A DNA stretch of 64,000 bases from Escherichia coli (GTDB lineage: Bacteria > Pseudomonadota > Gammaproteobacteria > Enterobacterales > Enterobacteriaceae), in the NCBI RefSeq assembly GCF_044324785.1, contig NZ_CP172127.1; one strand, given 5' to 3'. This document shows, one piece after another, positions 9,234 to 64,000 of the stretch. How positions within the stretch are numbered: the first letter of the stretch is position 1; each line of letters starts with the position of its first letter. Made by a program: the position numbers and the translations under genes. The notes under the pieces were generated by a model. That model worked only from the letters and a program-made list of their open reading frames with translations. It was not told where the DNA came from and did not search any database.

Positions 9234-10367
9234 ATGAAAAGCAAAGTACTGGCACTTTTAATTCCTGCCCTGCTCGCCGCAGGTGCTGCACATGCAGCCG
9301 AAGTTTATAATAAAGACGGCAACAAATTAGATCTGTATGGCAAAGTTGATGGCCTGCATTATTTTTCTGATAATTCAGCGAAAGATGGCGACCAGAGCTA
9401 TGCGCGTCTGGGTTTTAAAGGCGAAACCCAAATTAACGATCAACTAACTGGCTACGGTCAATGGGAATACAATATTCAGGCAAACAACACTGAATCCTCA
9501 AAAAACCAGTCATGGACCCGTCTGGCATTTGCCGGATTGAAATTTGCAGATTACGGTTCTTTCGATTACGGACGTAATTATGGCGTAATGTACGACATCG
9601 AAGGCTGGACCGATATGCTGCCTGAATTTGGCGGTGACTCTTATACCAATGCAGACAACTTTATGACTGGTCGAGCCAATGGCGTCGCGACTTATCGTAA
9701 TACTGATTTCTTCGGTCTGGTAAATGGTCTGAACTTCGCGGTGCAGTATCAAGGTAACAACGAAGGTGCCAGTAATGGTCAGGAAGGCACCAACAACGGA
9801 CGTGATGTTCGCCATGAAAACGGTGACGGCTGGGGTCTTTCCACAACATATGATTTAGGCATGGGCTTTAGCGCTGGTGCGGCATACACCTCTTCTGACC
9901 GCACCAATGACCAGGTTAACCATACTGCGGCGGGTGGTGATAAAGCAGACGCATGGACTGCTGGGCTAAAATACGATGCTAACAATATTTACCTGGCAAC
10001 CATGTATTCAGAAACGCGTAATATGACCCCGTTTGGCGACAGCGATTATGCTGTTGCAAACAAAACCCAGAACTTTGAAGTTACTGCACAGTACCAGTTT
10101 GATTTTGGTCTGCGTCCGGCAGTCTCTTTCCTGATGTCTAAAGGCCGTGACCTGCACGCTGCCGGTGGTGCAGACAACCCGGCAGGTGTTGATGATAAAG
10201 ATCTGGTTAAATACGCCGATGTTGGCGCGACTTACTATTTCAACAAAAATATGTCCACCTACGTTGACTATAAAATCAACCTGTTGGATGAAGATGACAG
10301 CTTCTACGCTGCCAACGGCATCTCTACCGATGATATTGTCGCTTTAGGTCTGGTTTATCAGTTCTAA
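9234..10367 (+). CDS. ompN: outer membrane porin OmpN (377 aa)
   Basis: 377 aa, signal peptide ending AHA, porin-like beta-strand pattern, C-terminal YQF. Confidence 0.95.
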
Positions 10368-42166: not shown

Positions 42167-43560
42167 CGCAATTTATCTCCTATTAAAAATTCCAGCGCAG
42201 CATCAAGACGAATATGCGGCAGCGGTTTGTCGACATCCATCACCTGCGGACGAAACGCCTCAAACTGGAAGCCTTGCTTATCCCAGAACGCCTGACCAGG
42301 TAAACGTGCGGGAACTTCGCCAGGATAAACAGTGAGCGGTGCGCCATCGCTGAGTCGATTACCGCGCAGCGCCGGGATTTTCTCACCGTTAACATCAATA
42401 ATGCCGCTGGTGGTCGCCTGAACTGACGCCAGCCCCAGGCAGTCCATGCTGATCCCTTCGAAAGCCGCATTTTGCCAGGCATCCTGAATTAGTTGTTGCA
42501 GTAATGAAACCATATTGGCGTGCTGATCGATGGTCACATGGTCTGCTTTAGTGGCAGCAAACAATAGCTTATCGATAACCGGCGAAAACAAACGCCGGAA
42601 CAGGGTTCGCTGCCCGTAGTGGAAACTTTGCATCAGCTGCGTCAGCGCCAGACGCATATCATTAAATGCCTGTGGCCCACTGTTGAGAGGCTGCAGGCAA
42701 TCCACCAGCACAATCTGGCGGTCAAAGCGCAGAAAATGATTCTTATAGAATCCCTTCACCACTTTCTCGCAGTAATAATTAAACCGCTCGCGCAGCATTC
42801 CGGCATTGGTATGCTTATCGGCCTGCGCCAGTTTGGACTCGCCCCAGGCATCGACATCCGGCCACGGGAAGAATTGCAGCGCGGGCGCACCTGCCATATC
42901 TCCCGGCAAGACAAAGCGCCCAGGCTGAATAAAGTGCAACCCCTGCTGTTTGCAGTGGTGGAGATACTCGGTCCAGGCGGCGGCAATGTCTGCCAGCCGG
43001 TTTTCGTCGGCAGGCGCTAGCGGATCCAGCCCTTCGCACATCATTCGCCATTTCGCCGACCATTCGCCGCGCTGACCATTAAGTAAGCCCGTCATCTGGC
43101 GCGACCAGCTTAAATAGTCCTGCGCCAACATCGGCAGATCGAGCAGCCATTCGCCGGGATAATCCACAATCTCCAGATACAGCGTGGAGGTGTCCTTGAA
43201 GTGGCGTAGCAGCGAATCGTTCGATTTAAAACGTAACGCCAGGCGAATTTCACTGACGCCGCGCGTAGGCGTCGGCCAGGCGGGAGGATCGCCATATAAC
43301 TGCGCCAACCCTTCATCATAGGTGAAGCGCGGAATGCCAAAGTCACGCTGGGGAATGCGTTTTACGCCCAGCAGGCGCTCTTCACGCACCGCACTTAAAA
43401 GCGGCAAACGTGCTCCGGCATGAATATTGAGCAACTGATTAACCATCGCGGTGATAAACGCTGTTTTGCCGCTGCGGCTAAGTCCGGTTACAGCGAGGCG
43501 CAGATGTCTGTCGACACCCCGATTCACCAGCGCATTAAGTTCATTTTTAAGTCGCTTCAT
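42163..43560 (-). CDS. ycjX: P-loop NTPase YcjX (DUF463) (465 aa)
   Basis: 465 aa; Walker A GLSRSGKT. Confidence 0.85.
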
Positions 43561-43678
43561 TGCTGTCCTGTGCCAGAAAGCTGTAGAAAGGATTAGATAC
43601 TGGAGATAATAATGTGGGTTAATTTTGATTTATCAAATGAATAAGCGGCGTTGTTTACACCGCTCAATAAGTAATTTG

Positions 43679-43993
43679 TTAACCTTTGACCTTCGGCATT
43701 GCGATGTCTTTCAGGCCACCGGCGTTCTCAACGTGGGTATATCCCATCTCGCTAAGGATCTCTTTTGCCTGCCCTGACTGGCGTCCGGCATTGCAATACA
43801 CTTTCACGGTGTCGTTTTTATCCGGAACGGCGGTGGCAATGCGCTCTTTTACTTCCTTCAGGGGAATATTGATGGCCCCCTGAACGTGCTCTTGCTGATA
43901 CTGCTCTGGAACACGAACATCGATCCAGTGTTCAGCGGCGAAAACGGGCAGTGAAAACACCAGTGTCAGAGCAAGTAAGCCTTTTTTAAACAT
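43679..43993 (-). CDS. pspE: periplasmic rhodanese (thiosulfate sulfurtransferase) PspE (104 aa)
   Basis: signal peptide; rhodanese active-site Cys in YCNAGRQS. Confidence 0.9.
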   Translation of the reverse strand: MFKKGLLALTLVFSLPVFAAEHWIDVRVPEQYQQEHVQGAINIPLKEVKERIATAVPDKNDTVKVYCNAGRQSGQAKEILSEMGYTHVENAGGLKDIAMPKVKG

Positions 43994-44067
43994 GTAAGCG
44001 TCCTTCTATGGATGAAAATTGCCATCCATAATATGCCTTAGCTTTAACAATTTTTGCGAAACTCCCC

Positions 44068-44289
44068 TCACCTTTTATAACGCTGCGCCAGTTTATTGGC
44101 AGCCCGACTTAACAGCGGTTCCAGCGCCACGGCCAGCAACATTTTCAGTGGTCGGCGAGCAACTGATTTTATCGCCCAGCCAGCTACACCCGCCGGGCCA
44201 TAGCGCAGTGCGGTAAGAAGTACCAGCTTGCCTGCTAATTTGAAACCAGGCTTCACCTTTTGCCCGGCCTGTTGCCAGCGAGTATTCAT
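44068..44289 (-). CDS. pspD: phage-shock protein D (73 aa)
   Basis: ORF track 44068..44301 trimmed to [10 protein letters not shown]. Confidence 0.85.
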
Positions 44290-44297
44290 AACTTTCC

Positions 44298-44657
44298 TCA
44301 CAGTTGACGGAAACGGCTACGTAACGTGAAAGTATCGGAAGTGACATAACGTTCCATCTCGCGTAAACGCGTTTCACTTGCCGCCAGTTCACGGTCGACT
44401 TCATCCAACAATTCGCTGCTGGAAGGTAGCTGCTCACCAAAGGCCATGTTGTCCGGCATTGGATCAAGCGCAAATGACAAAATGATGTAAGCAACCAGGG
44501 TAAACAGCGCCAGACCGAAGAAAATCGACAGCACCACCAGGATACGCACCAGTTTTACCGGTACATCAAAATAGTTGGCAATCCCGGCGCAAACGCCGCG
44601 TACCATGCCCTGCTGCGGAATACGCCATAATTTTTTATTGAGATTAATGCCCGCCAT
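44298..44657 (-). CDS. pspC: phage-shock protein C (119 aa)
   Basis: 119 aa with single TM; overlaps pspB stop. Confidence 0.9.
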
Positions 44658-44881
44658 TAGCGATCCCTCCAGTTCGGATGTTCTGCATCAAGAATAGATT
44701 CCAGCGCCTGAGTACGTTCGCGCATCCGTTTTGCTTCATCAGCCAGTTGCGCTAATCGCTGCTGCTCACTTTGCGACAATTCACTGCGACCAGAACGATT
44801 GCTGTAATGCAGCCATAACCAGATCGGTAAAACAAACAGCACAAAAATGGTTAACGGAATAGCCAGAAATAGCGCGCTCAT
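44657..44881 (-). CDS. pspB: phage-shock protein B (74 aa)
   Basis: 74 aa with N-terminal TM helix. Confidence 0.9.
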   Translation of the reverse strand: MSALFLAIPLTIFVLFVLPIWLWLHYSNRSGRSELSQSEQQRLAQLADEAKRMRERTQALESILDAEHPNWRDR

Positions 44882-44934
44882 AAGGACTCCTTAGACGATG
44901 AGCGGCGGCGCGTTCGGACGCCGCCTGGATGTTA

Positions 44935-45675
<741 letters not shown>

Positions 45676-46786: not shown

Positions 46787-47310
46787 TGAACTGCACCCCA
46801 AATGTTGGACATAATCTGACATCTGAAGGTGCAGTTTATGAAACATTCATTTGAAGTAAAACTTGCCGCTGTAAATCATTACCTGGCTGGTCATGCAGGC
46901 ATCATTTCTACGGCAAAACTCTTTCAACTTTCTCACACCAGCCTCTCACACTGGATTAATCTTTTTCTTCTTCACGGTCCTCGGGCACTGGATTGCAGAC
47001 ACAAGCGTAGCTATTCTCCTGAAGATAAACTTTGCGTGGTTCTTTATGCTCTCGGGCATTCTGAGTCTCTACCCCGGGTAGCTGCCCGGTTTAACATTCC
47101 CAGCCACAACACGGTTAAAAACTGGATAAAAGGCTACCGCAAATCTGGTAATGAGGCCTTTATCAGGCGCAGGAAGGAGAAAAGCATGACCCGTTCTGAT
47201 GATACCCATGAAAACGAGGCAAACATGACGCCGGAAGAGATGAAGAATGAGCTGCGTTATCTTCGCGCAGAAAATGCATATCTGAAAGCCATGCAGGAGC
47301 ATCTCCTGGA

Positions 47311-48218
<908 letters not shown>

Positions 48219-57893: not shown

Positions 57894-59537
57894 ATGCGCC
57901 AGGTATTATCGTCTCTTTTGGTGATTGCTGGACTTGTGAGTGGTCAGGCAATCGCCGCGCCTGAATCCCCCCCGCATGCTGATATCCGCGACAGCGGTTT
58001 TGTCTATTGCGTTAGCGGGCAAGTCAACACCTTTAACCCATCCAAAGCGAGCAGTGGGTTAATTGTCGATACCCTTGCCGCCCAGTTTTATGATCGACTG
58101 CTGGATGTCGATCCCTATACCTATCGCCTGATGCCGGAACTTGCCGAAAGCTGGGAAGTTCTCGACAACGGCGCGACCTATCGCTTCCACCTGCGTCGCG
58201 ATGTTCCGTTTCAAAAAACCGACTGGTTTACTCCCACTCGTAAAATGAATGCCGACGATGTGGTGTTTACCTTCCAGCGAATTTTTGACCGCAACAACCC
58301 GTGGCATAACGTCAACGGCAGCAACTTCCCCTACTTCGACAGCCTGCAATTTGCCGATAACGTGAAAAGCGTCCGCAAACTGGATAATCATACGGTTGAG
58401 TTCCGACTCGCCCAGCCGGATGCTTCTTTTTTGTGGCACCTGGCGACCCATTATGCATCGGTCATGTCGGCAGAATATGCCGGGAAGTTAGAGAAAGAAG
58501 ATCGCCAGGAACAACTCGACCGTCAACCGGTTGGCACCGGTCCGTATCAGTTGTCGGAATACCGCGCCGGGCAATTTATTCGCTTACAACGTCATGATGA
58601 TTTCTGGCGTGGTAAGCCGTTGATGCCACAAGTGGTGGTGGATTTAGGCTCTGGCGGTACAGGACGATTGTCGAAACTCCTGACCGGGGAGTGCGACGTT
58701 CTGGCCTGGCCTGCTGCCAGTCAGCTATCCATTTTGCGTGACGACCCACGCTTGCGTTTAACGCTGCGTCCTGGGATGAACGTCGCCTATCTGGCATTTA
58801 ACACCGCCAAGCCGCCGCTAAATAATCCCGCTGTCCGCCATGCGCTGGCACTGGCGATCAATAACCAGCGTCTGATGCAATCCATCTATTATGGTACGGC
58901 TGAAACGGCAGCCTCTATTTTACCGCGCGCCTCGTGGGCCTATGACAACGAGGCTAAAATTACTGAATACAATCCGGCGAAATCGCGCGAACAGTTGAAG
59001 GCGTTGGGGCTGGAAAACTTAACGCTGAAACTGTGGGTGCCAACACGTTCGCAGGCGTGGAACCCCAGTCCACTGAAAACCGCCGAACTGATTCAGGCGG
59101 ATATGGCACAGGTTGGCGTAAAAGTGGTGATTGTGCCGGTAGAAGGTCGCTTTCAGGAGGCGCGGTTGATGGATATGAGCCATGATCTGACGTTATCCGG
59201 TTGGGCGACTGACAGTAACGACCCGGACAGTTTCTTCCGTCCGTTACTGAGCTGCGCAGCAATTCATTCGCAGACCAACCTCGCCCACTGGTGCGATCCG
59301 AAATTCGACAGCGTGTTGCGTAAGGCGCTCTCCTCGCAGCAGCTGGCGGCGCGTATTGAAGCCTATGACGAAGCGCAAAGTATTCTGGCGCAGGAATTAC
59401 CTATTCTGCCGCTGGCGTCGTCATTGCGTTTGCAGGCCTATCGGTACGATATCAAAGGTCTGGTACTTAGTCCGTTTGGTAACGCCTCCTTTGCTGGGGT
59501 GTATCGCGAGAAACAGGATGAGGTGAAAAAACCATGA
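57894..59537 (+). CDS. sapA: periplasmic peptide-binding protein SapA (547 aa)
   Basis: signal peptide; family-5 solute-binding protein. Confidence 0.95.
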
Positions 59538-62369: not shown

Positions 62370-63176
62370 ATGATCGAAACGTTGCTTGAAGTGCGTAATT
62401 TAAGTAAAACGTTCCGCTACCGGACCGGCTGGTTTCGTCGTCAGACCGTAGAAGCGGTAAAACCCTTGAGCTTTACGCTACGTGAAGGCCAGACACTGGC
62501 GATCATTGGCGAGAATGGTTCTGGTAAATCCACGCTGGCAAAAATGCTGGCGGGAATGATAGAACCTACCAGCGGCGAGTTATTGATTGACGATCATCCG
62601 CTGCATTTTGGCGATTATTCCTTCCGCAGTCAGCGTATCCGCATGATTTTTCAGGATCCTTCGACCTCGTTGAATCCCCGTCAACGTATCTCGCAAATTC
62701 TGGATTTTCCACTGCGTCTGAACACCGATCTGGAACCTGAACAGCGTCGCAAACAGATTATTGAAACGATGCGTATGGTTGGGCTGCTACCGGATCACGT
62801 CAGTTACTATCCGCATATGTTGGCACCCGGGCAAAAACAGCGTCTGGGGCTGGCGCGCGCGCTGATATTGCGCCCAAAAGTCATTATTGCCGATGAAGCC
62901 CTCGCCTCACTGGATATGTCGATGCGTTCGCAGTTGATTAATCTGATGCTGGAGTTACAGGAAAAACAGGGCATTTCGTATATTTATGTTACCCAGCATA
63001 TCGGAATGATGAAGCACATTAGCGACCAGGTGCTGGTGATGCATCAGGGCGAGGTTGTCGAGCGAGGCAGCACCGCGGATGTGCTGGCATCGCCGCTGCA
63101 TGAACTCACCAAACGGCTTATTGCCGGTCATTTTGGCGAGGCATTGACGGCGGATGCGTGGCGTAAGGACCGTTAA
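62370..63176 (+). CDS. sapF: ABC ATPase SapF (268 aa)
   Basis: Walker A GENGSGKS. Confidence 0.95.
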   Translation: MIETLLEVRNLSKTFRYRTGWFRRQTVEAVKPLSFTLREGQTLAIIGENGSGKSTLAKMLAGMIEPTSGELLIDDHPLHFGDYSFRSQRIRMIFQDPSTSLNPRQRISQILDFPLRLNTDLEPEQRRKQIIETMRMVGLLPDHVSYYPHMLAPGQKQRLGLARALILRPKVIIADEALASLDMSMRSQLINLMLELQEKQGISYIYVTQHIGMMKHISDQVLVMHQGEVVERGSTADVLASPLHELTKRLIAGHFGEALTADAWRKDR

Positions 63177-63805
63177 CAGGTTTCCTGGCTAGTACAATAT
63201 TCTTCACCGATAGCATCAGGGTCGATAAAGGGATACTCATTTTGCATAATATCCTGTAAATATTGTGCAAAATTAACAGCAATGACCTGATAGCTATCGG
63301 GATCATGTAAATAACGAACAATTTGTCCAGATTTTCCTTTTGGAGATGGAGAAAAGTCGATATATAAACGTGAAGTGCCGCCATTATTAATGCAATGAGC
63401 AAAACAGAGCCAGCGATGAAACGGTACAGTTGGATCTATACGTTCATCAACATCGACTTCGTCCATTTGCCCATCGTAGATTTTCATGATGGATTCCTGA
63501 CCAAACCATGACTTTCTTTCCTCCAAAATCTGCTGGGCAGACTGGAGATAATAGGGATATTCTCCGCCTTCAACATCCGCCCCTAAAACGGGTAAAAATA
63601 CCTTTTTATCCTGATGTTGTTGAAAATAAGTTCCCTTGATCTGGCGAAGCAAACCGAGTAAATCCTCCGAAGAATCAGGATATTCATGGAGAAGTTCTGT
63701 TATATCGCTTTCTTGCGCTCCAGACAGTGTTGCAAATAATGCCCTGACATCCGTTGGCAAATGTGCGGCAAGCCCGGCCAAATATTCCTGATACATTGTC
63801 ATCAT
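63173..63805 (-). CDS. uncharacterised acidic cytoplasmic protein (210 aa), convergent with sapF; possibly SMI1/KNR4 (SUKH)-like, unverified
   Basis: 210-aa ORF MMTMYQEYLAGLAAHLPTDVRALF...; no signal peptide or TM segment; 4-bp convergent overlap with sapF stop; does not resemble the 117-aa YcjD I expect next to sapF in K-12. Confidence 0.6.
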   Translation of the reverse strand: MMTMYQEYLAGLAAHLPTDVRALFATLSGAQESDITELLHEYPDSSEDLLGLLRQIKGTYFQQHQDKKVFLPVLGADVEGGEYPYYLQSAQQILEERKSWFGQESIMKIYDGQMDEVDVDERIDPTVPFHRWLCFAHCINNGGTSRLYIDFSPSPKGKSGQIVRYLHDPDSYQVIAVNFAQYLQDIMQNEYPFIDPDAIGEEYCTSQETC

Positions 63806-64000
63806 AACGTCCTTTTTTAATCCATAATGAACAGCGTGTTTTGACTGTTTTTCTTAACAAAAGTTCCTGCTGTGCAACGCTCTGGCTCTTTAGTCCTTTC
63901 GTCGCTTATAATAGCTTTTTTCGGTCTTCCTCTTTCTCAAGAGAAAAGCTGCCTGATGTACAGGCACTGAAACGAGTATCAACAATAAGGATTAAAGCTA

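Follow-up and report, generated by a model that had tools for sequence, protein, structure and literature searches.

The 64,000-nucleotide stretch of Escherichia coli DNA analysed here (the window) carries, between sapF and fabI, a very rare and intact gene for a protein of the SUKH-1 (SMI1/KNR4) family. The pattern of its junctions implies that the gene was imported by homologous recombination, at the 3' end of sapF on one side and in the fabI leader on the other. The best reading of the protein, which we hold with about as much doubt as confidence, is that of an orphan, stand-alone toxin binder of the immunity type, acting in the cytoplasm. Two things appear to be new here: the description of this cassette as a third occupant of the sapF-fabI interval, with the fabI promoter region included, and that of a Knr4-like subfamily whose members are solitary in most of the contexts examined. 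The features on which the text draws are the following.

62370..63176, plus strand: sapF, the convergent neighbour, whose stop overlaps the stop of the SMI1/KNR4 gene
63167..63977, no strand: replaced, putatively imported tract of about 810 bp, with mismatches against the K-12-type sequence and then loss of homology
63173..63805, minus strand: coding sequence of the SMI1/KNR4 (SUKH-1) family, 210 aa, ATG start
63806..63999, no strand: intergenic region between the SMI1/KNR4 gene and the divergent fabI, compared among three locus types
63810..63814, minus strand: putative Shine-Dalgarno-like AAGGA, read off the sequence, with a spacing of 4 nt to the first ATG and of 7 nt to the second
64000, plus strand: first base (A) of the fabI start codon and last base of the window, equivalent to position 9601 of locus L001

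The gene and its protein

The open reading frame at 63173-63805 is a real, intact gene and not a chance ORF, since its product has 418 homologues (E <= 1e-3), a Pfam match and a confident structure model, and since the two E. coli alleles differ with a dN/dS of 0.21. The first-pass annotation had described an acidic, soluble ORF of 210 aa that overlaps the sapF stop by 4 bp, and both the coordinates and the pI of 4.44 agree with this description. Positions 63173-63176 are common to the two reading frames, whose stop codons are interlocked in gTTAAc, and no terminator-like site was found between the genes. With the stops interlocked in this way, each transcript would enter the other gene in antisense unless it were terminated inside. 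The N-terminus reads MMTM, so that the true start may be either M1 (63805) or M2 (63802). The protein is acidic, soluble and cytoplasmic in character: it contains 33 aspartate and glutamate residues against 14 lysines and arginines, its GRAVY is -0.41, and neither a membrane segment nor a signal peptide was detected, the most hydrophobic 19-mer scoring at most 1.07.

The membership of the protein in the SUKH-1 family is established, because three lines of evidence agree on it: the Pfam match, the Knr4-like fold found by Foldseek on the AlphaFold model, and the invariant family signature. The sequence had earlier given a weak impression of an SMI1/KNR4 (SUKH)-type domain, for which a Pfam search was proposed as a check. 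That search returned SMI1_KNR4 (PF09346; E 5.9e-9, 37.0 bits) over residues 65-184 and model positions 38-124 of 125, as the single Pfam domain of the protein, and Foldseek added the Knr4 core to this. A precomputed PF09346 match is also present in all 120 of the homologues listed, and in strain N3 (NZ_CP031609) RefSeq gives the product of the identical locus, AXA56_RS17405, the name 'SMI1/KNR4 family protein'. The NCBIfam and PHROGs profiles gave no match to the protein, and tblastn against phages gave no homologue.

The sequence search of solved structures retrieved the yeast Knr4/Smi1 core alone (E 1e-3). The AlphaFold model, built on an alignment of 62 homologues, has a mean pLDDT of 94.8 and a pTM of 0.91; 188 residues reach a pLDDT of at least 90, no segment falls below 50, and confidence is lower in the final ~10 residues alone. 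In the PDB, Foldseek gave the Knr4 core as the best match (E 2e-9, TM 0.6), together with FBXO3, BF1740 (annotated SMI1/KNR4), Syd and YobK, and the model shows the alpha+beta fold of SUKH proteins. The 62 aligned homologues share 27 invariant columns, among them C138, N140, N141, G142, G143, S145, D150, G160, Q161, R164, H167, D168, P169 and D170. The C-terminal SUKH signature (glycine-rich turn, acidic residue on the strand that follows, G-x-[IV] strand, acidic/His motif) is thus present, and its residues align with the equivalent segment of Knr4. The window protein is a single-domain SUKH-1 protein of a larger, 'Knr4-like' type of about 195-210 aa.

The sapF-fabI interval and the replaced tract

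In K-12-type genomes, the interval between sapF and fabI is occupied by ycjD (DUF559), which stands at this site in 3,346 of 5,426 complete E. coli genomes. The interval has been described as dimorphic in the species in the available portion of a recent study (PMC12817139), with eefRABCD in phylogroups B2, D, E, F and G, and with ycjD in A, B1, C, ST69 and ST182. The O157:H7 and B2-type (MS8320) examples that we compared hold a TetR regulator and RND efflux genes there. The SMI1/KNR4 cassette lies in the same interval as these two states and was found in one of the 5,426 complete genomes, that of strain N3; universal presence, against which the first-pass annotation proposed to check its idea of an accessory gene, is therefore not seen. 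The same annotation had remarked that the gene does not resemble ycjD, and this is borne out by the alignment, in which the K-12-type similarity breaks off where sapF ends and is seen again only from ~46 nt before fabI. No nucleotide similarity was detected between positions 63177-63949 of the window and the K-12-type interval, and Pfam gave SMI1_KNR4 alone, with no YcjD/DUF559 match. While the portion of PMC12817139 available gives two states, the cassette is a third and very rare one, now added to a locus that was recently called dimorphic there. Unlike the ycjD and eefRABCD states, it also swaps the last ~77 nt that precede the conserved 46-nt leader of fabI.

The sapF gene of the window is about 98% identical to the K-12-type gene up to 63119; synonymous mismatches follow at 63167, 63170 and 63173, and the homology is gone thereafter. 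It returns at ~63950, is diverged until 63977 and is normal from there onward into fabI. The replaced tract consequently takes in the last 10 nt of sapF, where the three synonymous changes lie, and continues through the SMI1/KNR4 gene into a diverged fabI promoter and leader. Its GC content, like that of the gene, is 41% (GC3 35%), compared with 51% in sapF and 50% in the window. The junction pattern implies that the donor was a relative that already had the order sapF-gene-fabI; neither the protein collection nor the GTDB species genomes gave a sequence above 62% identity from outside E. coli. The swap would amount to a short tract of homologous recombination in which the promoter and leader of an essential gene were exchanged too.

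Within the intergenic region, a TATAAT (in GCTTATAATAGC) is separated from the fabI ATG by about as much as in K-12, in diverged surroundings, and the 145 nt upstream of the SMI1/KNR4 gene resemble a diverged fabI promoter plus leader. This diverged promoter and 5' leader, of which the last ~23 nt are identical, occupies window positions 63806-63977 and L001 9407-9578. The regulation of fabI could therefore differ in strains with the cassette. For the SMI1/KNR4 gene itself, the consensus scan found no minus-strand promoter above thresholds in 63806-63999.

Strain N3 is 99.3% identical to the window over 62400-64000, and its ~195-nt intergenic region is 100% identical. The order there is SMI1/KNR4 gene, fabI (with its ATG at the equivalent of window position 64000), yciW, rnb and pdeR. 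In the protein collection, 17 contigs carry the 99% allele and one carries the 89% allele; the contigs shown for both alleles have sapA-F, the gene, fabI, yciW and rnb, in the same order throughout. The idea that an upstream partner might lie past the window end has thus to be abandoned, as fabI begins at 64000 and the other carriers examined have sapF-gene-fabI-yciW-rnb. Inspection beyond 64000, proposed in search of a toxin or an Rhs/CdiA-type neighbour, met fabI, yciW, rnb and pdeR instead in strain N3. A toxin partner beyond the window is ruled out by the order sapF-gene-fabI-yciW-rnb in every other carrier examined.

A cognate immunity gene of a polymorphic toxin system (CDI, Rhs, T6SS, T7SS/LXG) is expected immediately downstream of a toxin gene with a variable C-terminal toxin domain and co-oriented with it. 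Here sapF is convergent to the gene and fabI divergent from it, and this holds for the window, for strain N3 and for every contig examined with the 99% or the 89% allele. The arrangement also differs from the orphan or poly-immunity arrays of the rAID, AID-1 or Rhs-associated kinds, for it is a single gene with no recombinase and no Rhs or VgrG; some distant relatives, in Chitinophaga and Pseudomonas, are found in surroundings of that kind. Of the immunity-type reading proposed at the outset, the part that concerns the SUKH-1 family stands, on Pfam and fold, and the toxin neighbour falls, fabI being the next gene.

The nucleotide identity of the second E. coli allele is 92% and its protein identity 89%. 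Between the two, dS is 0.23 and dN 0.05, and the resulting dN/dS of 0.21 indicates that the protein is under purifying selection. At least four flank backgrounds carry the cassette: on three of them, whose flanks differ mutually by 1.2-1.7%, it is 99.4-99.9% identical, and a fourth has the 92-93% allele. A near-identical cassette on differing flanks means either that it passed from one lineage to another or that the polymorphism is old. All copies seen, on the four backgrounds and in both alleles, have an intact reading frame.

Some further observations were made along the same DNA. The sapA gene of strain N3 is annotated as frameshifted (L001 3496-5138), and that of the window is an intact ORF of 547 aa (57894-59537). 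Between pspF and puuE, at 46829-48186 on the plus strand, an ORF of 176 aa matches the N-terminal part of an IS3-family transposase (E 2.9e-14) and one of 240 aa its C-terminal part (E 3e-89), which is probably why even the best matches in E. coli leave 6% of window positions 40000-63172 uncovered (94% coverage). At ~43560-44935, ORF sizes alone suggest that ycjX/ycjF/tyrR come directly after pspA-E, in which case the strain would lack the ycjMNOPQRSTUV-ompG-ycjW block of K-12.

Relatives and their genomic contexts

Beyond Escherichia, the relatives of the window protein have 194-214 aa and 42-49% identity to it, and a scan of some 100,000 species genomes gave 323 stretches that encode relatives. 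Their hosts include Chitinophaga, Capnocytophaga, Paenibacillus, Lysinibacillus, Bacillus, Listeria, Pseudomonas, Burkholderia, Stenotrophomonas and Mangrovibacter, among others. The nearest proteins other than the two E. coli alleles, at 61-62% identity, likewise come from Escherichia; all others are below 50%.

These closest proteins belong to a rare Escherichia island between yegX/thiD and yegW/fbaB (L007 1413-8624; L008; L101 2393-9624; L103 474-9796). The island contains two or three large paralogous DUF6493/DUF7824/DUF7825 proteins (855-890 aa), followed by a SWIM zinc-finger protein (447-448 aa), and some versions end with an SMI1/KNR4 gene whose product is 61-62% identical to the window protein over its full length (P0003, P0004). 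In these, P0003 and P0004 are the last gene of an operon of two DUF6493 genes, SWIM and SMI1_KNR4, and start 14 to 34 bp after the SWIM gene. The island proteins gave no NCBIfam match, and a literature search on DUF6493 gave nothing.

In the contexts examined, the relatives are mostly solitary, and a few adjoin an Rhs toxin or form tandem arrays of paralogues. In Chitinophaga oryzae, the homologue lies 1.1 kb downstream of a gene whose 1,475-aa product has an RHS-associated core domain followed by a C-terminal extension; the two are separated by a 130-aa gene and a GNAT gene, and an Imm70 gene is nearby. In Pseudomonas, the homologue is found within runs of short co-oriented genes that include a second copy of the family and a weak SMI1_KNR4 gene. 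Two tandem paralogues end a six-gene co-oriented run in Pseudomonas folii and Pseudomonas sp. ICMP 561 (L033 7920-9272; L045 8001-9270), and a similar run of short genes follows an HSP70-like gene and a 530-aa gene in another Pseudomonas locus (L012). Transposases flank the homologue in Paenibacillus, and on plasmids of the Bacillus cereus group and of Priestia it is solitary.

The homologues of Stenotrophomonas (L018 7959-8591, L032 and L066 among others) occur in about 35 species genomes, with 43-46% identity, and in the three loci mapped the gene stands at a shared syntenic position. In the annotated locus (L018), its neighbours are ispB, a YghX-like hydrolase, murD/murL and lysC-lysA. Such stable conservation is unusual for an immunity-type gene. 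The Rhs/vgrG6 poly-immunity cluster of Stenotrophomonas (bioRxiv 10.64898/2026.07.13.738213) was considered as the home of these homologues and rejected for the annotated locus, given the housekeeping neighbours.

When the ORF products of 80 loci were clustered by BLAST, no neighbour conserved across genera emerged beyond generic families, it being understood that ORF calls are crude in GC-rich genomes and that the target gene was lost to antisense ORFs in 22 of the 80 loci. The recurrent neighbour clusters are each dominated by one genus, that is, they represent shared synteny. A link to GNAT acetyltransferases was considered, as one was seen beside the homologue in Chitinophaga oryzae, Pseudomonas PDM28 and Lysinibacillus; it is not general, and an iterated GNAT HMM gave adjacency only in Lysinibacillus (one synteny block) and in one Paenibacillus. 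The 967-aa protein upstream of the Terrimonas homologue was set aside as a toxin candidate, since it appears from its sequence to be UvrA. A further impression found no support, as Pfam on the concatenated proteins gave YjbR only and hhalign against the family profile was not significant.

Possible functions and comparison with known systems

We think that the window protein may be best understood as an orphan immunity-type binder because of its fold, its cytoplasmic character, the mobility of the gene, the purifying selection on it and its occasional toxin-linked relatives. From these we infer the binding of a toxin, the kind of toxin and the benefit to the host. The ~810-bp cassette would have arrived by homologous recombination from the 3' end of sapF to the fabI leader, so placing the gene at this site instead of ycjD or eefRABCD and without a cognate toxin. 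When a competitor injects a polymorphic toxin by an Rhs/T6SS, CDI or similar route, the protein would bind the C-terminal domain of the toxin one to one and block it; the target of such a toxin would most probably be nucleic acids or something else in the cytoplasm. Several findings speak against this reading. None of the E. coli copies has a linked toxin, the 80 loci show no neighbour conserved across genera, and selection between the E. coli alleles is purifying and not diversifying. Moreover, identities of 42-49% are maintained across Bacteroidota, Bacillota and Proteobacteria, with the 27 invariant columns in 62 sequences, a conservation that is unusually high for an immunity protein. Together with the synteny of the three Stenotrophomonas loci mapped and the housekeeping neighbours in the annotated one, this cross-phylum conservation looks more like a stable cellular role.

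Yeast Knr4/Smi1, FBXO3 and Syd are SUKH-fold binders of conserved cellular proteins, and the window protein might likewise be an adaptor or regulator that binds such a protein, with no role in immunity and with the E. coli copies acquired horizontally. We regard this as possible although on the whole unlikely. The yeast Knr4 core as the closest solved structure, the dN/dS of 0.21 and the solitary copies in most genomes examined are in line with it, as are the presence in many Stenotrophomonas species, with shared synteny in the three mapped loci and housekeeping neighbours in the annotated one, and the cross-phylum conservation, in which the polar residues C138, N140, N141, S145, D150, Q161, R164, H167, D168 and D170 are invariant. 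However, this motif coincides with the general structural signature of SUKH proteins and so may not point to any one partner; conservation does not extend to an operon partner; and a housekeeping role would not predict a family so patchy (323 of about 100,000 species genomes), borne on plasmids or flanked by transposons in places and nearly absent from E. coli. A wider proposal, which we find rather doubtful, would take the whole Knr4-like solitary SUKH-1 subfamily for a conserved intracellular binding module with a fixed partner, the counterpart of yeast Knr4 and not an immunity family, widespread in Stenotrophomonas and scattered elsewhere by transfer; the E. coli copy would then be a third sapF-fabI allele from an unsampled enterobacterial donor, with a foreign fabI promoter.

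It is also conceivable, if improbable, that the gene is a functionless passenger, yet to decay, in a recombination tract from a related donor. The tract brings the promoter and leader of the essential fabI, so that selection could act on the tract as a whole, the gene is extremely rare, and its own promoter was not recognised by the consensus scan; yet it has a good putative Shine-Dalgarno sequence, its frame is intact in every copy seen, and two alleles separated by a dS of 0.23 retain a dN/dS of 0.21. We give very little credence to a role as a component of anti-phage defence, which would draw on a match to the PADLOC candidate model PDC-M40A (E 9.4e-11, profile positions 71-166 of 169): the match spans the generic SUKH core alone, PDC-M40 is a candidate system for which a literature search gave no mention, no defence genes stand beside the E. 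coli gene, and it has no phage homologues. Hardly more credible would be an action in trans with the proteins of the DUF6493-SWIM island, despite the closest non-allelic homologues (61-62%; P0003/P0004, 14 to 34 bp after the SWIM gene) being part of its operon. A variant with three DUF6493 genes and SWIM lacks the SMI1 gene, which is therefore optional there; megablast detects the island in two of the 5,426 complete genomes, with matches only ~75% identical in both and N3 not among them; and none of the other relatives in the 80 loci has DUF6493-SWIM neighbours.

In our opinion, the window offers a clean case of a lone orphan SUKH gene in a core-genome interval and not in an immunity island, which can be used to ask what such genes protect against. 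The conservation of the subfamily and its apparent stability in Stenotrophomonas also call into question the blanket label of 'immunity protein' for bacterial SMI1/KNR4 matches.

Yeast Knr4 is a signalling hub in cell-wall stress. The Knr4/Smi1 core of Saccharomyces cerevisiae (PDB 5J1B, 8AJ2) is the closest solved structure, with 15-19% identity to the window protein. The yeast protein has long disordered N- and C-terminal arms around its SUKH core, whereas the E. coli protein lacks them and is ordered almost throughout its 210 aa. Its closest non-allelic relatives, the island copies P0003 and P0004, are co-oriented with SWIM in a four-gene operon, whereas the window copy is monocistronic and convergent with sapF.

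The orphan immunity-type reading is to be compared with the bacterial SUKH-1 proteins that have been described as cytoplasmic immunity proteins binding the toxin domains of polymorphic toxins (PMC3113570). Toxin-linked members of the family, such as YobK of B. subtilis (2PRV), RhsPI of the RhsP-WHH pair (8BD1) and the Tdi-type proteins (8G0K_D, 6ITW), are encoded directly downstream of a toxin gene, unlike the window gene, which lies between sapF and fabI with no toxin; they are also shorter (about 130-190 aa) and without the N-terminal helical extension of the window protein. Isolated SUKH copies have been proposed to act as guards against non-self toxins (Zhang, Iyer and Aravind 2011, PMC3113570), and orphan SUKH immunity proteins have been shown, for rAID I2, to bind and neutralise a T6SS effector (PMC12247911). 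The rAID orphans, the isolated SUKH genes of the 2011 proposal and the window gene have in common that they are SUKH genes without a cognate effector. In the Bacteroidales, however, the rAID genes form co-oriented arrays of short genes next to a tyrosine recombinase and bear signs of positive selection, whereas the window gene stands singly in a core-genome interval that has no recombinase, and its dN/dS is 0.21.
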